This document shows positions 40,251-53,242 of a stretch of 64,000 bases of DNA, piece after piece. This stretch comes from Chthoniobacterales bacterium (GTDB lineage: Bacteria; Verrucomicrobiota; Verrucomicrobiia; Chthoniobacterales; Chthoniobacteraceae). Made by a program: the position numbers and the translations under genes. The stretch spans positions 1 to 64,000 of the forward strand of contig JBBQZX010000009.1 in the NCBI GenBank assembly GCA_038207335.1. Direction: 5' to 3'. Numbering within the stretch: the first letter of the stretch is position 1; every line of letters begins with the position of its first letter. The notes below the pieces were generated by a model. The model worked only from the letters and a program-made list of their open reading frames with translations. It was not told the DNA's origin and searched no databases.

Positions 40251-40327
40251 TGGCGGAGTCTACGGGACTCGAACCCGCAACCTCTGCCGTGACAGGGCAG
40301 CGCTCTAACCAATTGAGCTAAGACTCC
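40251..40327 (-). tRNA. tRNA-Asp (GTC)
   Basis: Reverse complement GGAGTCTTAGCTCAATTGGTTAGAGCGCTGCCCTGTCACGGCAGAGGTTGCGGGTTCGAGTCCCGTAGACTCCGCCA; cloverleaf with encoded CCA. Confidence 0.97.
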
Positions 40328-40496: not shown

Positions 40497-41453
40497 TCAG
40501 GCGCGGGGATGGAATTTGTGATGCACCGCTTTGAGCCGCCGCTGATCGACATGCGTGTAAATCTGCGTAGTCGAAATGTCGGCGTGGCCGAGCAGTTCCT
40601 GAATGATGCGGAGGTCGGCACCGTTGCCGAGCAGATGGGTGGCGAATGAATGCCGGAGGAGATGTGGATAGACGTTGATATCGATGCCGGCGTTTTTCGC
40701 GCACGCCTTCACGATTTGCCAGATGCGGACGGTCGTGAGCTTTGTGCCGCGCGAGGAGAGGAAGACTTCGCTGCCCGTTTTTTTGCGGACGAAATCGGGG
40801 CGTTCGTTCGCGAGGTAGAGCGCGATCGCGGCGCACGCTTTTGCCCCGACGGGCACGAGCCGCGTCTTGTTGCCTTTGCCGGTGACGCGGATGATTCGCG
40901 AGTCGAGGTCGAGATTTTCGAGCCTCGCATTCACGAGTTCGGAGACGCGCAGACCGCTTGCATACAGGAGTTCGAGGATGGCGCGGTCACGCAGGGCACG
41001 CGGGACATTCTCCGGCACGCCGTCGAGGAGATGCTCGACTTGGAGTTCGTTCATCGTTTCCGGCAGGTATCGCTCGGTGCGCGGGAGCGGCAGCAGTTCC
41101 GCGGGATCGCGTTCGATCCGGCGACGCGCCTGGAGCCAGCGGAAGAAGATTTTGATCGCGACGACGATGAGCTTGATCGAGGCCGCCGCGAGGCCGCTGC
41201 GTTTTCGATGCGCGAGGTAGTCGGTGATTTGCGCGTGCGTGATTTCGCGGGGCGCGACGCTCGTTTCCGGCATCTCCGCGCCGCTGCTCGTGAGCTGCGC
41301 GACGGCTGCCTCGCCGAGCGCTTTCACGATTTGCTTTCGCTCGAGCCACGCGGTGAAGCCCTCGAGAGAGAGGCGCGTGGAGATTTGATAATTGTCCGAG
41401 AGCCCGCGCTCGGTCGCGAGGTAGAGGATGAAGTCGTCGATCGACTCGCGCAT
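40497..41453 (-). CDS. xerD: Site-specific tyrosine recombinase XerD-like
   Basis: MRESIDDFILYLATERGLS; SGLRVSEL, GKGNKTR, PHLLRHSFATHLL, LGHADISTTQIY; TGATG coupling to purC. Confidence 0.88.
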   Translation of the reverse strand: MRESIDDFILYLATERGLSDNYQISTRLSLEGFTAWLERKQIVKALGEAAVAQLTSSGAEMPETSVAPREITHAQITDYLAHRKRSGLAAASIKLIVVAIKIFFRWLQARRRIERDPAELLPLPRTERYLPETMNELQVEHLLDGVPENVPRALRDRAILELLYASGLRVSELVNARLENLDLDSRIIRVTGKGNKTRLVPVGAKACAAIALYLANERPDFVRKKTGSEVFLSSRGTKLTTVRIWQIVKACAKNAGIDINVYPHLLRHSFATHLLGNGADLRIIQELLGHADISTTQIYTHVDQRRLKAVHHKFHPRA

Positions 41454-42316
41454 CAGCGGGTGAGCCGGTCGAGCGCTTCGAGATACTTTTCGCTCGTCCT
41501 GCAGATGACCTCGTCGGGCAGCGGCGGCGCGGGCGGCGTCTTGTCCCAATCGAGTGTTTCGAGGTAGTCGCGGACGAATTGCTTGTCGTAGCTCGGCGGG
41601 CTGATGCCGAGCCGATGTTGATCCGCGGGCCAGAAGCGCGAGGAGTCGGGCGTGAGGCATTCGTCAATCAGGATCACGCGCCCATCGAGCAGTCCGAATT
41701 CAAACTTCGTGTCCGCCACGATGATCCCGCGCTCGGAGGCAAATGCGCGTCCTTCCTCATAAATCCGCAGGCTCAGCGCGCGGACTTGTGTCGCGACATC
41801 GTCCCCGATGAGACGGCGGCATTCGTCCCAGGCGATGTTCTGATCGTGCCCGCTCTCCGCTTTAGTTGAGGGCGTGAAAATGGTTTCCGGCAGCCGCTCC
41901 GCCTGCTGCAAACCCGCCGGAAGTGCGACGCCGCAGATGCTCTGCGATGCCTGATATTCCTTCCATCCAGAGCCCGCGAGGTAGCCGCGGACGACGCACT
42001 CGACGGGCAGCGGCTTCGCTTTTTTTACGATCATCGATCGTTGCGAAAGCTCTTCCCATCGGCCTTGGACGGCATCGGGGAGATTTGCGAGATCCGCGTC
42101 GAGGAAGTGATTCTCCACGAAATCGAAGCGCGAAAACCAGAAACGCGAGAGGCTGGTGAGCACCTCGCCTTTTCGCGGAATGCCATTGGGCAGGATGCAG
42201 TCGAAGGCCGAGATGCGGTCCGTCGCGACGAGCAGCAGGCGGTCGCCGAGGTCGAAAATCTCGCGCACTTTTCCACTCGCGATTTTTGTGATGCCGGGCA
42301 GGTCGAGGGTGAGCAT
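41453..42316 (-). CDS. purC: SAICAR synthetase
   Basis: SGKVRE, TDRISAFD, ECVVRGY, ADTKFEFG, TPDSSRFW, SYDKQ. Confidence 0.96.
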   Translation of the reverse strand: MLTLDLPGITKIASGKVREIFDLGDRLLLVATDRISAFDCILPNGIPRKGEVLTSLSRFWFSRFDFVENHFLDADLANLPDAVQGRWEELSQRSMIVKKAKPLPVECVVRGYLAGSGWKEYQASQSICGVALPAGLQQAERLPETIFTPSTKAESGHDQNIAWDECRRLIGDDVATQVRALSLRIYEEGRAFASERGIIVADTKFEFGLLDGRVILIDECLTPDSSRFWPADQHRLGISPPSYDKQFVRDYLETLDWDKTPPAPPLPDEVICRTSEKYLEALDRLTR

Positions 42317-44327: not shown

Positions 44328-44518
44328 GAGTGAGGAAAAACTCTAACGGCTCGAAGCACCGTAAGTCGCGCGGATTCTCGGATCGCCCCGCTCGCTGCAC
44401 CGAACCGGTTGATTCGACTGACTTCAAAAGAGTGGGAAGATTAGCTTGGCGGCACCTCCGTTGGGCCCCTGTCGGCTGATCGTTTGTTCGGGGCGGCTGG
44501 CGCGCCGGGTGCGCGCTA

Positions 44519-44645
44519 CAGCATACAACCCGCGGTAATGTAAAGCGGCGGGGCGCCGGGAGGCCTCCTTTGGAGAGCCGGTGCGGTGCGCGGAGAAGTG
44601 GCCGGCTGGTCCGCCGCCGCTTTGCATTACCGCTGTTGTATGCTG
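44519..44645. repeat. attC-like long imperfect palindrome
   Basis: cagcatacAAC-ccgcggtaatgtaaagcggcgg ... ccgccgctttgcattaccgct-GTTgtatgctg. Confidence 0.55.
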
Positions 44646-44945
44646 AGCGGAGCGCGGGCCTGGCGCGGCGGCTGCCTCCTTGCGCGTTTCGTGGGGGGAC
44701 GAACGCGAGCAGCCGCCGTGACAGGCCCGCGCGCAGCGGTTCGCGCAAGCTCCCGGCGTGACAGCCGCGCGGCGGGAACGGGGCGGGCGGGGGTTAGGGT
44801 CCGCTGCGCGGCCAGCAGGCACCGTGACGCGCGAGGGAGCGGCGCGGTTAAGCGGGGCCGCTCGCTCGCGTGGCGCGATGCCTGCACGGTTGGGGCACGC
44901 AACCCACCCGCGGCGGGACGCCGCCACACTTCAACGGCAAGGCGG

Positions 44946-45755
44946 TTAAGCGCGGCGTTTCGAAGCAATCGCGACGATGGCAAGCAAGGTGAGGATTCCC
45001 ACCACCCACGGCCACACCGGCGCTCCGCGCTCAACGGTCGGCGCGGGACTTTCAGCAACCTTTGGTGCCGACGGAGCAACCGGCATGGCAGTTGGAGTCG
45101 CCATCGGCCGTGCAAACGTAGTCGGGGGCGACTGATCTGGAATAGGACTCGGTGCCTTTGGCAGTTCGGGTTTGGACGCTTCGGCCTCGCGTTGCAACGT
45201 TGCCTGCCAAAACTCAGATTCGTCTGTCCCCATATCCGCAAGCCATGCATCCCGCTTCTTCCGCTCCAAAGTTAGACTCGCATTCGAAGAACGTCGGTGA
45301 ATGGAAAGCAATAACACCTCGTCAGCGACATGCCACCGCAGGACACGGGTAACACTTGTGGACGCATCTTCAAAGTTCGGGACATCTGATAATCTGGCGG
45401 AACCATGCTGCTCTTGGAGTTTGGCTGCCATCCCTTTAAACGCTTCCTCGGCAACAGCAGCTGGAAGTAATGGATCATCAGTCCAGTAGCTGAGAGCATT
45501 GAATTTACCTCCGTCTAACTTGGCACGCCCCGCAAAAGTCAGTCCGAACGCGGAGAGTTTCTTAAGTTTTTGCTCGGTCGCTTTTGAATCTAAAGCGACG
45601 GGCGCATCCAGGTATCGAGCTGCTTTTGCGTTTGTTGGACTGCCTAAGTTCTGCGCGACAATACCGAGGAGTTCCTCGTCGCTAGCCAGCGCGGGGCCAT
45701 ACGCTAGCAACCCGCAGATAAACAGCCCGCTGGTTCGTAGCAAACAAAGATTCAT
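44946..45755 (-). CDS. Exported, C-terminally membrane-anchored hypothetical protein (candidate immunity protein)
   Basis: Signal peptide, Pro-rich linker, terminal TM VWPWVVGILTLLAIVAIASKRRA; ATGA overlap with the amidase gene; visibly lower GC than backbone genes. Confidence 0.7.
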   Translation of the reverse strand: MNLCLLRTSGLFICGLLAYGPALASDEELLGIVAQNLGSPTNAKAARYLDAPVALDSKATEQKLKKLSAFGLTFAGRAKLDGGKFNALSYWTDDPLLPAAVAEEAFKGMAAKLQEQHGSARLSDVPNFEDASTSVTRVLRWHVADEVLLLSIHRRSSNASLTLERKKRDAWLADMGTDESEFWQATLQREAEASKPELPKAPSPIPDQSPPTTFARPMATPTAMPVAPSAPKVAESPAPTVERGAPVWPWVVGILTLLAIVAIASKRRA

Positions 45756-48700
45756 TGGGCGGGTTGTGCGCGAAGGTCATCAATGCTCGCATTCCCCAAT
45801 GCTTTAGCAGCTTCCTCACGCATCCTGTTAGCCGTGGCTGACAAGGTTGCATTTCCCTCGTTGAAAAGGAGATCAGCGTTTGTGTTAGACATCCATTCCA
45901 TCTCGATCAGCGCCGCTCTGCATGGTGTGTGGCCGGCGATGTTGCCGTTATAGTTAGGGGTTGCTGGGTCGGTGCTGTCGGAAAGAGTATCCAGTCCCTT
46001 TTGCAGATTAGCTTCATGCTGCTCCGAAGTAATCCCGTCAGTTGGAGCGTTGCGGCTCGCTTGCGGCTCAACAGCCGCGATTGCCGTCTGCACCCCTTGG
46101 CGTAGTCGAATCGCAAGAGCTTGATCTTCTGCAAGATTAAGGTTGCCAGTTGCGTCCCACATTCCAAATGGATGTCGCCTCAAGGGAACTCCATCTACGG
46201 AGTTGAAGTGGATGCTGACATAAACATCACAACCATTCTCCCTTGCCACTTTCGTCCGGTCAGGGAACGAGACGTTCGCCGTTCCGGTGCGTGTGAGAAA
46301 GACTTTGAGTTGAAGATGTTCAGTGTCTCGACGTCTCCGCAAGTCCGCTGCCATACGCTGCGCAACATCGAGGGCAAAGGCGTGCTCTTGGGCTCCGGTT
46401 GTTACTCCCGTGCCGCCGAGCGCATTCGATCCTCCAGCCGCACCAATTCCGTGACCGGGATCAATTACGATAACGCCAGGCACTTCCAAATCGATGAGTT
46501 CAAGCGGTGAAGTAGTTCCTTCGATCTGAATCTTGATGCGGGCTTTGTTCAGGCCTATTGGCGGAACATTCACTCGAATCGCAGTAAACCCGTCGGCATC
46601 AATGGTCGTTTCCCCTTGTTCTTGAGAGACCCGACGATAGCTGTGAGCAGTAAAAGTTGTTGATGCTTCAAACCGATCCCGGTGAGCTGCTACCGCGCGA
46701 TCCCAGCTACCCCGGAAGACCGGTGGAAGATTCAGACCATTCGGATCAAAGGACCGGGTAAAGAGAGGATCCATCGACCAAGTAACTTTCTTGTCCTTGA
46801 GGGCCGAACCGATCTTCACTTTCAATTCACGCCACGCGATTCGGATGGCAGCCGCGTCGTTTTGGTTGGCAGCGGGATCCCTCTCAACCATCGCATTGGA
46901 TTGAGGGTTTGGTTTCGGTTTCTCAGAGCCTGCAATCTCGTTGCCATCGTCATCCCTGAGCTTGGGCGCTAACTCGACTACTTCCACTGGGAGGAGGAGG
47001 GCGGGGTTGGAAAGCCAAGCAATGTTTTCTGGATCCGACACGGTGCCTTCGGGTGTCCAGAATGTGCCGACGCAATTTCCAGCAGAGTTTATTGCGTTTG
47101 GATAGATGGGAGTCGGCGGTTCGAGGGTCGGGTCTCGAGATTCCGGTAGCGGGAAGGCTTGGAGGGCGACATGGAAATATGGGTCGCTGGGAGTCCATTC
47201 GGCTATGCAATGTTGATTGAGAAGCCACTGCCCTTGGCCGGTGGCATCGGAACCATATACGTCGGCGTAAAAGATGATGCTCGTCCGGTGGGTGATCGGA
47301 TTCGGGTTCGTGATCATTACCGGGTTCGCGTTCTGAAACTGCGATCTCAGTTGTGGGGGAAAGTTATTCATGAAAACTCTCTCTCGTACGGAATCCGATA
47401 ACTCGGATGTTTGGATGAAGCCGAGATACCCCCATCCTTTGCGCGTATGCGATGGGTTGTCTGGGAGTGGGTCCGGAAAGTCCTCGGTCGGATTCTCCCA
47501 CTGGTAACTAATCCCATCATTGAGAAGTCCGATGACCTCCCTTCGGTCATTGATCGCAGTCGGAGTGCAGCGGCCGAGTGAAGTGTAGGTTCCGGCGAGG
47601 TTCCAAATGAGGTTGTCGGTCACCACGATGTTTCCAGTTACAATATCTCTGCCTGTGATGTTTATAATCTCCAAGCCATTCTCGCTTATCGCGACGAAGT
47701 TCGCGCCTTCTATTGCTGTGATCGGAGTGCCAACGAGAAATTGGCGAAATGGCGCTCTTACGAGACCTTCATAGTCATCAAATTCGCCGTGGATAGTCCC
47801 AGGATAGGCAAGCTCCCCCCCTTTCACTCCTGTGCCCGTCACTTTGTAAATGACGCAGCCCATCTCTGGCGTAGTGTCAGCCCATACTCCGTTCCGCAGG
47901 TCTGGTGGAGCTGGCGGATTGTCGTGTGGCAAAGGAATGAGGTATGCAGGTACTGGAACATCGTCAGGTATGCCTCGCTCGTAATTCCACTCGTAATCGC
48001 CTTCCTTTTTTTCCCAAGTATTGCATGAGCCAACAAGTTCTCCCCATGTGGAGACGGAATTGCCAATGTATAACTTTTCTTTAGATACGTCACCATCCCA
48101 AGTTGTTTCTTTCTTGAATTCTTTCACACTGGTGATCGCGCCATCTGCCCACGCACTCGCGATATATCTGTTTGACTGAAAAAATGCGGCTACCCACGCC
48201 ACATGAGTCTGTTCGTCGATCGCCAAAAACTCGTTCTGTCCAGGTTGAACCGGCTCGCCATTAAAGGTGAACTTGCTCAAATCGATCAGCGCATACGCTT
48301 TTACGGGGATGTCTTGACTCCGCAAGGGGTCAGTGGGGTATTGGTCGAGGTAGTCTGGGACGCCATCCCCGTCGCTATCTTGGGCGCTAGTCGGGATATT
48401 TGGATCGGTGCCGTTGGCGATTTCGTCGCCATCGCTGATGCCGTCGCCGTCGGTGTCGGAGTTGTGGGGGTCGGTGTGGATGCCTCCACCGTTGTCACCG
48501 CCGATTTCGTCGATGTCGCGGATGCCGTCACCGTCACTGTCGCGGTTGAAATCGAATGCGAAGAGGTTCTTGACTTGGCCGATGTTGACAAGGGTGAAGT
48601 CGTTGGTGCCTGGGGGGGTGAGATTCCACGGGTAGATGCTGCCGAGGCCAACCTCTGCGAGGCGGTCGTAAAAGGGCTTTGCAATGGTTTTGAGTTGAAA

Positions 48701-49075
48701 GAGAGTGACGGCTGCATACTCGTCGTGGGTGACGCCTGACGTGGGAGCCCATGCGGCGACGAGGTTTTCGATTGTTGAGCCGGCACCACCGGGGAGCCTG
48801 CTGAATTCCACGGCGGCTTGGGTGACGATTTGTTTGACTTGGCCGGTATTGGGGGCCGTAAAGTTGTCCACGCTCGGGTAGCTGCCGGGCCATTGGGGCG
48901 TGGAGTCGATGGAATTGGTGCGCTTGATCACGTCGCGAGTGAACCACCAATCGGGGTATTCGGGCGGTTTGTCGAGGGGTATGGGACCCGCGATGCTGAC
49001 GGTGGCGCTCCAGACGAGGAGGAGCAGCCAGGCGGTGACGCGGGTGGCCATGGGAGGGGAGGTGCGATGTTGCAT
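45752..49075 (-). CDS. Secreted modular protein: N-terminal triple-repeat domain, TSP3-like DxDxDG repeats, unknown middle, C-terminal N-acetylmuramoyl-L-alanine amidase (Amidase_3)
   Basis: Signal peptide; DSDGDGIRD, DTDGDGISD, DSDGDGVPD; amidase motifs VIVIDPGHG, QEHAFAL, FLTRT, YVSIHFNS, ALIEMEWMSN. Confidence 0.85.
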   Translation of the reverse strand: MQHRTSPPMATRVTAWLLLLVWSATVSIAGPIPLDKPPEYPDWWFTRDVIKRTNSIDSTPQWPGSYPSVDNFTAPNTGQVKQIVTQAAVEFSRLPGGAGSTIENLVAAWAPTSGVTHDEYAAVTLFQLKTIAKPFYDRLAEVGLGSIYPWNLTPPGTNDFTLVNIGQVKNLFAFDFNRDSDGDGIRDIDEIGGDNGGGIHTDPHNSDTDGDGISDGDEIANGTDPNIPTSAQDSDGDGVPDYLDQYPTDPLRSQDIPVKAYALIDLSKFTFNGEPVQPGQNEFLAIDEQTHVAWVAAFFQSNRYIASAWADGAITSVKEFKKETTWDGDVSKEKLYIGNSVSTWGELVGSCNTWEKKEGDYEWNYERGIPDDVPVPAYLIPLPHDNPPAPPDLRNGVWADTTPEMGCVIYKVTGTGVKGGELAYPGTIHGEFDDYEGLVRAPFRQFLVGTPITAIEGANFVAISENGLEIINITGRDIVTGNIVVTDNLIWNLAGTYTSLGRCTPTAINDRREVIGLLNDGISYQWENPTEDFPDPLPDNPSHTRKGWGYLGFIQTSELSDSVRERVFMNNFPPQLRSQFQNANPVMITNPNPITHRTSIIFYADVYGSDATGQGQWLLNQHCIAEWTPSDPYFHVALQAFPLPESRDPTLEPPTPIYPNAINSAGNCVGTFWTPEGTVSDPENIAWLSNPALLLPVEVVELAPKLRDDDGNEIAGSEKPKPNPQSNAMVERDPAANQNDAAAIRIAWRELKVKIGSALKDKKVTWSMDPLFTRSFDPNGLNLPPVFRGSWDRAVAAHRDRFEASTTFTAHSYRRVSQEQGETTIDADGFTAIRVNVPPIGLNKARIKIQIEGTTSPLELIDLEVPGVIVIDPGHGIGAAGGSNALGGTGVTTGAQEHAFALDVAQRMAADLRRRRDTEHLQLKVFLTRTGTANVSFPDRTKVARENGCDVYVSIHFNSVDGVPLRRHPFGMWDATGNLNLAEDQALAIRLRQGVQTAIAAVEPQASRNAPTDGITSEQHEANLQKGLDTLSDSTDPATPNYNGNIAGHTPCRAALIEMEWMSNTNADLLFNEGNATLSATANRMREEAAKALGNASIDDLRAQPAQ

Positions 49076-49093
49076 TGGGCGATGGCCTCGAGT

Positions 49094-50785
49094 CTAGGGC
49101 ACTGGGTTGGGACCGAATGCCCCCATGGAGAGGTCGCCTTGGGGCTCGATGTGGACGGGGCCGTCGAAGCGGGCGGTGCCGGCGACGTGGAGCTGGGCTA
49201 GCGGCTGCGCGATGCCGATACCGACGTCGCCGGCGGGGGTGATTCGCACTCTTTCGACGGATGGGACTGGGTTGGCTCCGTTCCCGGTGCCGGCGGTTTT
49301 GATGAGGACGGCACCGCCTTGTCCGTTGCCGAAGCCGTCGCCGCCGGCGATGGAGAGGTCGGCCCCGGCGACGGTTTCGGCAGATGCGCCGGTGGCGTGG
49401 AGGGTGAAGCCGATCGGGTTTGCCGATGCTTTGCCGTTGCCGAAGTAGCCGTTGGCGATGAAGCCGTTCCCGGCGAGGTTGTCTCCTCCGACAATCAATT
49501 GATTGCTGCTGGATGCGGTGATTGAATCGTCTGAGTAAGCTCCGAGGAATATGTTGAATGAACCGAGTAAATTATGCAGGCCTGCAGTATACCCAATGGC
49601 TGTGTTGAAATTCCCGGTCGTATTGCCGATTCCGGCTGCGCTACCAATGAAAATGTTATGAGAGCCCTCCGTGTTCTCGGCTCCTGTCACGGCTCCAATG
49701 AATACGTTCGAGTAGCCCGACGTGTTTCGATAGCCGGTGCTGTCGCCAATAAACTGATTCTCACTGCCGACCGTGTTACCTCTGCCAGCGAAAACCCCCA
49801 TGAAGGTGTTGGCTATCCCAGATGTGTTATTCTCCCCAGCTTGTCGGCCAATGAAATTATTGTAAGTCCCGGTCGTATTATAGTATCCGGACCCAGCACC
49901 CATGAAGTTGTTAAAGGCTCCGGTGGTGTTGAATACACCGCTGTTGACAGAGATGAAATTGTTGCAGTAACCTGTGGTGTTGCTATACCCGGCGTTTCCT
50001 CCCACGAAATTGTTGCAGCTTCCTAAATCGTTGTTGCGACCGGCATTTGCTCCAAGGAAGTTGTTGCCGCCACCTTGCGAGTTTGACAATCCAGCGCCGG
50101 TGCCGGCGAAAAAGTTACCCGCTCCTTGAGAGCCGGGATTTCCCGCGCCCGCGAGGGCAATTCCGTCGGGGCTGCTGCGAGATAAGATTTCGACGCCGTT
50201 GATTTTTAAGGCACCGCCTTGGATGTTGAGGGCAGGAATGGTGAGTGGCGAACCAGCGGTGATGTTGCAGATGCCGTTGTAGCCATTGGCGCTGCTGGCG
50301 AATCTGCTCTCTGTGAGTACATTGGAGCCGTTGATCGTGATGCTTCCGTTGCTGTTTGGATTGAGAGCGATGGTCGGCGTATTCGAATTCGACGGATACA
50401 AGAGTAAATCGTTCGACACATCGAGGGTCATCTGCGGGAAAGAAGTGCCATTGAGATCGGCTTTTTCCCACTGCAGCGCGATCGTCGGCTTGGCTAGGAA
50501 AAATCTTAGAACGGAAGTGGGGAGAGCCGGGTCTTCACCGTAGCTCAGAGTCAGCGCCTGCGATTCTCCAATCTGAGTCGTTGCCCTGCCAAAGTAAAAC
50601 TCGCTGCCTGCAACATCGAGGACATTGTGAAGGGTGGTGGCACCGTTGACATCTAGCGAACCGCCGATGGTAGCATTGCCGTTGACATCGAGCTCGGTGA
50701 AGGATTCAGGGAAGGCAGGAATCTGGGAGGAAAGGAGGAGGGCGATGCAGGTGGTGAGGATGCGGTGGGAGGCTTGTTTTTTCAT
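49094..50785 (-). CDS. Secreted trimeric adhesin/tail-fibre-like protein with 17-aa beta-roll repeats
   Basis: Signal-like N-terminus; about 12 NNFxGxxAGxxNTTGxx repeats; C-terminal ERVRITPAGDVGIGIAQPLAQLHVAG and PQGDLSMGAF. Confidence 0.8.
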   Translation of the reverse strand: MKKQASHRILTTCIALLLSSQIPAFPESFTELDVNGNATIGGSLDVNGATTLHNVLDVAGSEFYFGRATTQIGESQALTLSYGEDPALPTSVLRFFLAKPTIALQWEKADLNGTSFPQMTLDVSNDLLLYPSNSNTPTIALNPNSNGSITINGSNVLTESRFASSANGYNGICNITAGSPLTIPALNIQGGALKINGVEILSRSSPDGIALAGAGNPGSQGAGNFFAGTGAGLSNSQGGGNNFLGANAGRNNDLGSCNNFVGGNAGYSNTTGYCNNFISVNSGVFNTTGAFNNFMGAGSGYYNTTGTYNNFIGRQAGENNTSGIANTFMGVFAGRGNTVGSENQFIGDSTGYRNTSGYSNVFIGAVTGAENTEGSHNIFIGSAAGIGNTTGNFNTAIGYTAGLHNLLGSFNIFLGAYSDDSITASSSNQLIVGGDNLAGNGFIANGYFGNGKASANPIGFTLHATGASAETVAGADLSIAGGDGFGNGQGGAVLIKTAGTGNGANPVPSVERVRITPAGDVGIGIAQPLAQLHVAGTARFDGPVHIEPQGDLSMGAFGPNPVP

Positions 50786-50819
50786 AGGTCGAGAGGTTGG
50801 GCGGTGTGAGTTGCGTTTC

Positions 50820-50849
50820 GGGTCGCCAAGAGGGTCGCCAAGAGGGTCG
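50820..50849. repeat. 12-bp tandem duplication (gggtcgccaaga x2.5)
   Basis: Directly visible in the intergenic region. Confidence 0.7.
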
Positions 50850-50862
50850 ATGTTTCCGTCGC

Positions 50863-51477
50863 CTAGCCGGCGAAGGGGCAGGTGACGATGTCGCTGTCTT
50901 GGCCGACTTCGGTGTCGCCGATGATGCCGCGGGCCATGTATTCACGGTCTTCGGGGGCGCCGGGGACGAGGAGGGGGGTCTGGTCGTCGTAGGGGAAAGT
51001 TTTGCGGGCGGGGGCGACGAGGAGCCACGCGGCGTTGTTGCGGCGCAGGTAGATATTGACGCGTTCGGCGTAGTTTTTGGTGCCGGTGATGCGGACGTGG
51101 CCGCGCATGGGCTCGACTTTGATGACGGGCTTGATGGTGTTTGGCGGGGGCGTGTAGGCGCTGGTGAAGATGCGCATGGCATTGCCCAAGCCGGTGGTGA
51201 AGGCCGGGTTGGCCTTGATCTGGTGGATGAAGTCGCGCAGCGGGGTGTTGCTGTCGTGGAAGAGCTGGTGGGCGTCGCCGCTGGCGGTATCGAGGACGGT
51301 CTGGGCGTCGATGACGGCCTGGTAGGCGGCGATGAGCGGGTCGATGAGGGCGTTGAACGCGGTGACGGCGGCGGCGTTCAGGCTGAGGGTGGTGGCGTTG
51401 TCGGCGACCTCTTGCTTGAGGTCTTTGAGCCACTGGAGGCGGTTTGCGAAGGAGTCGGGGATGAAGTCGTTGGCCAT
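50863..51477 (-). CDS. Hypothetical 204-aa protein (amphipathic helical N-half, beta-sandwich-like C-half)
   Basis: Clean ORF with strong codon bias; MANDFIP.. start; C-terminal REYMARGIIGDTEVGQDSD. Confidence 0.8.
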   Translation of the reverse strand: MANDFIPDSFANRLQWLKDLKQEVADNATTLSLNAAAVTAFNALIDPLIAAYQAVIDAQTVLDTASGDAHQLFHDSNTPLRDFIHQIKANPAFTTGLGNAMRIFTSAYTPPPNTIKPVIKVEPMRGHVRITGTKNYAERVNIYLRRNNAAWLLVAPARKTFPYDDQTPLLVPGAPEDREYMARGIIGDTEVGQDSDIVTCPFAG

Positions 51478-51597
51478 GGTTCGGGGTAGGTTGGTGGTTC
51501 TTGGTTTCGCTGTTTAGAGGTGAAAACGGGCGGTTTCTCTGCGGCGCGGGCGAGGTTAGGGGTGCCGGAGGGTGAATGTGAGGGCGTCGCCTCTGTA

Positions 51598-51891
51598 GAG
51601 GAGGTTTCCAAGCGAGCTGGCGGGGTTTCCAGCGGGATTGGCGGGTACGCCAATGCGATTGGCATACTGGCGGATTGGATTGGCGGGGTTTCCAATCGAA
51701 TTGGCGTACTCGCCAAGTCGAATGGCGGGGTTTCCAATGTGATTGGTGGGTACGCCAATCCGATTGGAGTAGTTCCCAGCGCAATTGGCGTACTTGCCAA
51801 TCGGGCTGGCGGCGCTGTGGATCGAGATGGCAGGGTAGCGGACCGGGCTGGATAGGATGCCGGACGACGCGGCGACGGTGCGGGGGTTCGC
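51598..51891. repeat. Degenerate 21-bp-period tandem array (about 14 units)
   Basis: Units such as ggcggggtttccagcgggatt, ggcgggtacgccaatgcgatt, ggcggggtttccaatcgaatt, ggcgtactcgccaagtcgaat, in exact 21-nt register. Confidence 0.85.
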
Positions 51892-52252
51892 GGGGAGGGG
51901 GTTTTCGCGCGTGGGGGACACGGGAGCACAGTTGAGCGGGTGGCCAATGCGGTGTCTGTCCGGGATGAGCCCCCATTTTGAGGTGGAGACGCTGGAGGGG
52001 AGGAGGCGTGGGCATTTGCTTACGCTGAGGAGGGGATTGGTGCGATTTTCCCCGGACACTGCTCCCCTACAAATGGGGCGGTTCAGTGTTCAAATCGCGG
52101 CATTTTGAGTGTTGTTTGGTGGAGGTGAGGGCGCTGATTTGGTTGCGTTTCTCTGCCATGCGTCGGGGGTGAAAAGCGGGGGATGGTGGTCCTTCGTTGC
52201 ACTCAGGATGACAGGGTGGGGAGGGGTGCGATCGTCGTTGCGGTGAGCAAGT

Positions 52253-52305
52253 TTGTAGGGCGACCGCTTCGGTTGCCCAAGGCAGGCGGAGTGCCTGCCC
52301 TACAA
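52253..52305. repeat. GTAG-type REP doublet
   Basis: ttgtagggcgaccgcttcggttgccc-aa-ggcaggcggagtgcctgccctacaa. Confidence 0.7.
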
Positions 52306-52396
52306 TTTTCCGGCAAGCTGAATCGCTTTGGGGAAATTCTTGAGGCAGGGTGTGGGTGAAGGTGCTCTACTCGGGCTGTGTCACGTTGCTCCCTCG

Positions 52397-53242
52397 ATGA
52401 TTGATCCTTTTAAGAAGCCACGCGTGCTGGTGGTGATGGCTGTGCCGGGGCTGCGGACGGGGATGTCGATGTTTCTCGAAAAGGAGGGGTCGCTGGAGGT
52501 GTGCGGGGAGACGTGCAAGGCGGCGGAGGCGCGGGCAATGTGCGGGGAGTTGCTCCCGGATGCGATCGTGCTGGACCCAGAGGTGGCGGGGCTGGGGCTG
52601 GCGCTGGTGCGCGATTTCAAAAAACTGCACCGGGCGGCTTCGACGGCGCTGTATGCGAGGCGGATCGATGCGGAGCAGGTGCGCCGGGCTTTCAAGGCGG
52701 GGGCGCAAGGTTATTTCTCGCAATCGGAGGAGTTGCCGACGGTGGTGGCGGAGCTGGTGCGGGTCTGCTGGGGGGAGCGGGTGATGAGCCCGGCGGTATC
52801 GCGGCAGATGACGCGCGATTTTACAAAGGGGAATGACAGGACGGCCGGGCTGGAGCGGATTTCGGCGCGGGAGCAGGATGTCCTATGGCTGCTGGGCCAT
52901 GGGAAGGGGGAGTCGGCGATCGCGCTGGAGCTGGGGGTGGGTGTGAAGACGGTGGAGACGTATTTCGAGCGGCTGAAGCAGAAGCTCTCGCTGAAGGATG
53001 CCGCGCAACTGCTGGCGGTGGCACGGGAATATGCGCGGCAGCACTCGGAGGTGAGCGGCCGCGCCATGGAGGCGGGGCGAGAGGGATCGGCAGGCGCGGA
53101 TGTGGGGGAGAAGGCGGTGGCGATGCTGTCGGAGGTGGGTGCGCCGCCGCTGATGCGGGGGTTCTTCGCGACTGATTTTCTCGCGCCCCCATCGGGTGCG
53201 CGGGGGACTCGCAGCTTCCGCTACTCGCGGAGGCGGGTGTAG
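52397..53242 (+). CDS. NarL/LuxR family response regulator with atypical receiver
   Basis: REC-like N-terminus; LuxR HTH ISAREQDVLWLLGHGKGESAIALELGVGVKTVETY. Confidence 0.82.
   Translation: MIDPFKKPRVLVVMAVPGLRTGMSMFLEKEGSLEVCGETCKAAEARAMCGELLPDAIVLDPEVAGLGLALVRDFKKLHRAASTALYARRIDAEQVRRAFKAGAQGYFSQSEELPTVVAELVRVCWGERVMSPAVSRQMTRDFTKGNDRTAGLERISAREQDVLWLLGHGKGESAIALELGVGVKTVETYFERLKQKLSLKDAAQLLAVAREYARQHSEVSGRAMEAGREGSAGADVGEKAVAMLSEVGAPPLMRGFFATDFLAPPSGARGTRSFRYSRRRV

Follow-up and report, generated by a model that had tools for sequence, protein, structure and literature searches.

A Likely Class of Sec-Exported Polymorphic Toxin-Immunity Loci in Verrucomicrobiota, with a Conserved N-Terminal Domain Encoded Next to a Fibre Gene

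Introduction

A carrier protein, a C-terminal wall hydrolase, and a coupled periplasmic protein together make up the layout of polymorphic toxin/immunity loci. In type VI secretion (T6SS), the VgrG trimer is capped by a PAAR-effector: a trimeric spike meets a pseudo-symmetric adaptor that carries the variable toxin. Sec/T2SS-exported polymorphic toxin systems, whose immunity proteins are secreted or membrane-bound where the toxin acts at the surface, are described in the portion of Zhang et al. 2012 (PMC3482391) available to us. The closest parallel to the locus reported here, going by the accessible part of PMC7073777, is formed by the TANFOR toxins of Bacteroidetes, which use another domain: a phylum-restricted N-terminal domain of ~147 residues that follows a Sec signal. 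Our literature search, with subscription journals mostly outside its coverage, returned no description of the present system, no paper on how Verrucomicrobiota attack other bacteria, and no pair of an Amidase_3 domain and a cognate protective protein.

Here we analyze a three-gene locus in a 64,000-nucleotide stretch of DNA from a Chthoniobacterales bacterium (the window). We read it as a polymorphic toxin-immunity system in which a swappable amidase sits on an exported carrier, a downstream partner neutralizes the amidase, and a fibre binds the N-terminal domain of the carrier and aims the toxin; we give this reading a probability of roughly 0.7. Its toxin-immunity part, taken alone, is highly probable, and that the fibre physically carries the toxin is close to an even bet. 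The locus likely represents a genuine class of Sec-exported polymorphic toxin-immunity loci that spans the phylum and has apparently escaped description so far.

In the available portion of PMC3482391, the systems likewise combine a signal peptide, a conserved N-terminal part, RHS or other repeats, a variable toxin tip, and a coupled immunity gene, but the export-route table there lists N-terminal domains other than the present one and no dedicated upstream fibre; the terms SLH, collagen, Chthoniobacter, and Opitutus are absent from the main text. Like ours, TANFOR loci, in the accessible part of PMC7073777, have tips that vary (wall hydrolases and TNT among them), immunity genes coupled to the toxin genes, and split forms in which the next gene bears the toxin; TANFOR genes lie near T9SS substrates, whereas the neighbor here is a fibre that has a tail motif of its own, and NCBIfam gave no TANFOR match in our N-terminal domain at E 0.1. 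The likeness to VgrG-PAAR is one of model logic only; the proteins here have Sec-type signals, and no T6SS sheath gene was found in the genome. Finally, fibres of the family share YadA_head or collagen stalks with trimeric autotransporters and tail spikes, but, unlike trimeric autotransporters, the fibre lacks a YadA anchor barrel and ends in a short tail motif.

Results

Locus Layout

The locus and its neighbors comprise the following features, all on the minus strand:

50863-51477, minus strand: upstream gene, 204 residues, no family, 77 bp before the fibre gene
49094-50785, minus strand: fibre gene U, 563 residues; export-type N terminus, Gly/Asn-rich repeats, conserved C-terminal tail; predicted homotrimer
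49484-50152, minus strand: fibre repeat stalk (residues 212-434), similar to phage virion-structural/tail-spike families
49097-49150, minus strand: fibre tail with PQGDLSMG motif; conserved, the sole part common to all fibre types
45752-49075, minus strand: toxin-carrier gene T, 1107 residues; likely start Met9 at 49051
48542-48964, minus strand: conserved N-terminal domain of T (N-domain; residues 38-178); three D-x-A-x-x-N-x-G-Q-x-K repeats, each running into a helix; weakly SLH-like model
48326-48541, minus strand: TSP3-type Asp-rich repeats (about residues 179-250; TSP3_bac match at 207-226)
46997-48313, minus strand: variable middle region (residues 255-693); GC 0.52; no family, almost no match among homologues
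46481-46996, minus strand: LLPVE junction plus pre-amidase domain (residues 694-865); the swappable module begins here
45857-46471, minus strand: Amidase_3 domain (H875, E897, H956, E1058)
44946-45755, minus strand: partner gene D, 269 residues; predicted immunity protein
44400-44945, minus strand: GC-rich hairpin tract right after the D stop; shared (70-86%) with other family loci, several behind other tip/partner pairs

The sequence-only reading had described three tightly packed minus-strand genes with export-type N termini, and both points hold: the ORFs of the window leave an 18-bp gap between U and T and a 4-bp ATGA overlap between T and D, and by hydropathy the N termini of U, T, and D are all hydrophobic. 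The database gene call starts T at Met9 (1,099 residues); if this start is used, the U/T gap becomes 42 bp instead of 18. GC falls to 0.52-0.56 over the variable parts, compared with 0.62-0.64 in the flanks, and one contig of sequencing run X1, a possible source of this DNA, covers 44726-52500 with zero differences. No paralogues of U, D, or the N terminus of T were found elsewhere in the genome.

The 204-residue gene upstream has two distant paralogues elsewhere in the genome; degenerate 21/42-bp tandem repeats (51635-51746) precede it, and a 12-bp direct repeat (50820-50849) lies in the gap between it and the fibre gene. An element of ~60 bp near 52250-52320 (region 51478-52330) has copies on six other contigs of the genome. 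A tRNA gene (40254-40327, minus strand) adjoins a XerD-like tyrosine recombinase gene (40497-41660, minus strand) 4 kb from the locus.

A Conserved N-Terminal Domain with Variable Tips

The N-domain, ~150 residues long, is in no family library. Residues 30-180 of T retrieved 107 proteins of 608-1938 residues including T itself. Those other than T show 33-51% identity, differ widely in their Pfam domains, and hardly align to T past residue 300 except in TSP3 repeats. A 55-sequence profile of the domain identified 2,731 representatives (counted at 50% identity) at E up to 0.001, and 56 of 61 records of relatives bear names from Verrucomicrobiota, with four named only "bacterium" and one on a short contig labeled Sphingobacterium.

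When 128 entries no shorter than 450 residues (a set that takes in some duplicates and partial proteins) were compared by their final 200 residues, they fell into 44 clusters, the second largest of which consists of TSP3 or stub ends. The majority of tips have no family match; the commonest assigned ones are DUF900/alpha-beta hydrolases. Known toxin domains include a Tox-MPTase4 tip (68 bits) in the RHS gene of a tandem locus and a TNT tip in L077, which scores 30.2 bits on the C-terminal piece and 26.5 on the whole protein against a cut-off of 27. Other tips are PAD, a reprolysin-like motif, a lipase-like tip that, like the Tox-MPTase4 one, lies in an RHS gene following a stub N-domain gene, and, below the cut-off, an NTP_transf_2-like tip in the RHS form L055, with DUF6959 downstream. 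The family includes RHS forms although the locus in the window has none: RHS is fused to the N-domain in L055, L059, L036, and L028, and is the next gene after an N-domain stub in L063, L067, L076, and L090.

Stub carriers (L063, L067, L073, L187, and L190; P0006, P0015, P0017, and P0026) end in a PxITLxxPxxAxLLP-like motif that resembles the junction residues of T up to LLP, and RHS is often next where the locus is known. In the tandem arrangement at L020:3314-15718, a fibre, a broken N-domain, and an orphan CarboxypepD-type partner are followed by a second fibre, a full carrier, and a partner, and then by transposase-like ORFs and an RHS-like piece. No orphan toxin/immunity cassettes were found in the genome of the window.

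The N-domain lies far from the N terminus in 12 of 148 entries. A family of ~700-residue proteins (L065:8360-11290; P0092, P0094, P0098, P0100, and P0107-P0109) carries it near the C terminus after Ig domains, and in L065 a DUF1573 gene comes next and the fibre tail is absent upstream. Conserved hydrolase-like tips end the RHS-like N-domain proteins of ~3,200 residues in L199, L214, and L216, where the upstream gene is not a fibre but a large gene ending in a motif that we take to be dockerin/EF-hand-like. A variant of the N-domain at L030:8784-13382, fused to an SpvB-like domain, has TRGE/TRKE-like motifs that bring it nearer to SLH; it is a possible bridge to true SLH domains.

The Amidase Module

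T ends in an Amidase_3 domain (residues 869-1073; 58.6 bits, cut-off 27) whose key residues, claimed to be intact in the sequence-only reading, are conserved: among 87 homologues, H875 is kept in 87, E897 and H956 in 86 each, and E1058 in 85. We take the first three to be the zinc ligands and E1058 the catalytic Glu, by family knowledge. The module as a whole (residues 690-1107) is found in 87 other proteins at 30-75% identity, riding on unrelated carriers: with whole T as the query, the alignment begins at residues 686-703, at LLPVE, in 64 of the 87 and extends over residues 296-606 in none; only 23 of the 87 carry the N-domain; and among amidase loci with a complete 5' end, two of eight have the N-domain and six have other carriers. 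An LLPVE-like motif also occurs at the modal start of other tips (31 of 95 proteins vs. 38 of 2,677 background windows).

Tip and Partner Vary Together

D consists of a signal, a core domain (about residues 25-190), a Pro-rich linker, and a C-terminal membrane anchor, and belongs to no family that we found in Pfam, NCBIfam, or PHROG. Its earlier description as an exported, membrane-anchored protein agrees with the hydrophobic N terminus and with a C-terminal hydrophobic stretch followed by KRRA. The linker and membrane tail are common to many unrelated partners behind other low-GC genes, which points to a tip-specific core on a common anchor; of the 151 genomes in the family, the two that have full-length D are also the two that have the full module, and the D tail alone is matched in nine others. 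We consider D the likely immunity protein, predicted to neutralize the amidase in the periplasm of the producer.

At each of the 14 other amidase loci examined there is a coupled ORF whose product has a hydrophobic stretch at the N terminus (11 called by script and three read by eye from printed frames). Homologues of D at 29, 28, and 21% identity follow amidase modules at 72, 71, and 48%, and the partner of a module at 40% joins the D family through these three; among the remaining partners, six (modules at 36-42%) share another family and one stands alone, with three left unclassified. A short gene follows within 70 bp in 21 of 26 complete long carriers. Combining these 21 loci with the window and six amidase loci (28 in total), we find 30 pairs that share both tip and partner cluster, 15 that share the tip only, and 18 that share the partner only; 30 was reached in 0 of 5,000 shuffles, a contrast inflated by kinship and by the choice of amidase loci. 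By hydropathy, an export-type N terminus is present in all 17 partners of amidase/hydrolase tips and in none of the three partners of TNT, nucleotidyltransferase-like, and Tox-MPTase4 tips, the target compartments being those we presume from family knowledge; the partners of three unassigned tips have it in one case and lack it in two. The possibility of one C terminus everywhere with an invariant downstream gene is contradicted, as both vary, and vary together. The layout first proposed for the locus, that of a polymorphic toxin, is recovered across the family: a conserved N-terminal region, variable tips with known toxin domains, and a coupled, varying downstream gene.

The same parts could instead build a general surface-display scaffold, i.e., an adhesive structure bearing enzymes for feeding (on dead walls or lipids) or adhesion, with D as a chaperone or safety inhibitor. 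Fibres and carriers contain CBM96, LamG, RCC1, FN3, and Ig parts that would fit such a role, as would the stub forms with non-RHS genes next and the N-domain proteins that have non-toxin ends (beta-helix, FN3-like, LamG, or TSP3 parts). We nevertheless judge it improbable, given the TNT and Tox-MPTase4 tips with their unsignalled partners, the RHS forms, the GC of tips (19/21 loci) and partners (18/21) below that of the carrier start, the patchy spread of the N-domain (39 of 400 sampled phylum genomes), and the fast divergence of D (28-29% identity vs. 71-72% for the amidase).

A Fibre Tail Linked to the N-Domain

U has zero matches in Pfam and NCBIfam, but its residues 212-436 match PHROG virion-structural and tail-spike families (E 4e-13 to 2e-9), in line with the fibre-like repeat protein seen in the sequence-only reading. 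What the fibres of different loci have in common is the tail. Defining it as G[DG][LIVM]xMG at most 30 residues from a stop, in the 800 bases before an N-domain, we found the motif at 46 of 60 loci, compared with four of 12,868 control windows drawn from the genome that holds the locus. A second sample of 40 regions, hand-picked from phylum genomes and half of them chosen for short ORFs, held 41 N-domain ORFs, or 36 once five duplicates were dropped; a tail score of at least 10 was obtained for 23 of the 36 (one upstream gene counted twice), compared with two of 11,329 own ORFs, and several of the low scorers end in visible variants of the motif. In both samples, the association of the fibre C terminus with the N-domain exceeds chance by a wide margin.

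The 46 tail-bearing genes comprise 14 with collagen, 11 with YadA_head (one below cut-off), one with LamG, and 20 without a Pfam match, and 12 of the 14 collagen fibres carry a CBM96 head. Collagen, YadA heads, and tail spikes are trimers, and from the stalk types of its relatives we predict that U is a homotrimer.

The N-domain was modeled with a pLDDT of 88, and triple-SLH domains were its best matches in all four structure look-ups, with weak scores; Pfam SLH matched none of the 55 members, and five of the 55 show weak YadA_stalk matches. The triple-SLH domains of Sap (6bt4/3pyw) and SpaA (6cwc), in the part of PMC6081394 available to us, likewise have three repeats with a core helix after a conserved four-residue motif. 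In contrast to them, the N-domain comes from a Gram-negative host and has N-[Q/L/I]-G-Q in place of TRAE, with no Arg, in all three repeats and across the 55 sequences. A three-fold repeated, weakly SLH-like domain that lacks the SLH arginine suggests, on the basis of this model, a dock for three fibre tails; that three tails actually sit in three grooves of the N-domain is a tentative proposal, somewhat likelier to be wrong than right.

Toxin and immunity could also be real without the fibre being the carrier: the N-domain would then anchor T to the envelope of the producer itself or act as an export signal, and the fibre would be a co-transcribed adhesin with its tail as a sorting signal. 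It is in keeping with such an arrangement that the best structural matches are SLH cell-wall anchors, that many amidase carriers have neither N-domain nor fibre, and that the tail gene is absent at some N-domain loci. The TRAE Arg, critical for wall-polymer binding in the available part of PMC6081394, is nevertheless replaced by Q/L/I in all three repeats, and the genome has a single copy of the strict tail motif, in U, immediately ahead of its sole N-domain, as one would not expect of a general sorting signal; we therefore hold this explanation to be unlikely.

The Tract Downstream of D

The GC-rich tract that follows D forms hairpins (44510-44640, z -4.5) and is present in 24 of 151 family genomes, counting the own one. 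At seven of 29 tract loci, the sequence directly upstream matches tip or partner families that also occur at N-domain loci (one of the seven was already in the first sample), and several more follow other coupled, exported genes. The tract may serve as a 3' recombination arm for exchange. Its hairpins are attC-like (AAC...GTT) but different from the own sites of the genome's integron. This integron, which lies on another contig (G000:C3:278554-281018), has a 326-residue intI (TIGR02249, 478.8 bits) and at least two cassettes with canonical-looking attC ends, and is cut by the end of contig C3.

Export Machinery

The absence of T6SS, CdiB, RHS, and autotransporter barrel genes from the locus was corroborated, with no adjacent TpsB/CdiB transporter there either. 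A search of the genome, which is 94.7% complete, did not turn up VipB, a phage sheath, a YadA anchor, or an Rhs core; it found four secretins over the cut-off and two ShlB/TpsB genes, all on other contigs. The term "PVC-type" once applied to the system is apt for the phylum group but not for the Photorhabdus virulence cassette, as no sheath gene was found in the genome.

Discussion

That T is a housekeeping or prophage lysis amidase with incidental neighbors is very improbable: Amidase_3 is common in cell-division and phage enzymes and the fibre resembles phage tail spikes, but the genome has two further amidase-like genes at other places, 2 of 151 family genomes contain the full module, a search of the genome for a phage sheath came up empty, and the same slot carries unrelated tips in relatives; the variation of tip and partner contradicts the idea.

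For the polymorphic toxin-immunity system that we favor, we propose the following sequence of events. Judging from their N termini, U, T, and D would cross the inner membrane by Sec. The fibre would then trimerize, and its three tails would dock on the pseudo-three-fold, SLH-like N-domain, as predicted from gene coupling and symmetry. The delivery route is the weakest step: we infer that, to exit the periplasm, the assembly uses a route encoded outside the locus, for which a type II-type secretin or vesicles are the best candidates. Outside, the fibre head would bind the surface of a neighbor (a glycan in CBM96 forms) and the amidase would cut the wall of that neighbor. Tip and partner would be exchanged together from the LLPVE junction onward, the modularity being seen across loci and its mechanism presumed. 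In its most specific form, which we hold to be somewhat less likely than not, the locus would encode a two-subunit, lectin-guided bacteriocin: a homotrimeric fibre, built of a CBM96 head and a stalk of collagen, YadA, or phage-spike type, with its three PQGDLSMG tails in the three grooves of a repurposed SLH-like domain.

If the bacteriocin model is true, the aiming fibre and the toxin tip evolve as separately swappable parts, and a logic like that of VgrG-PAAR has been built from unrelated parts, free of T6SS, and is used throughout a phylum whose weaponry is little known. Soil, sediment, and guts all harbor Verrucomicrobiota in abundance. A pair of an Amidase_3 and its cognate protector would contribute both an antibacterial aimed at the wall and a family of amidase inhibitors. 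The N-domain, with about 2,700 representatives at 50% identity, is a marker for listing many new toxin tips and partners, and the locus points to a mode of delivery in which a separate fibre does the aiming, and to the possibility that the SLH fold can serve in peptide binding.
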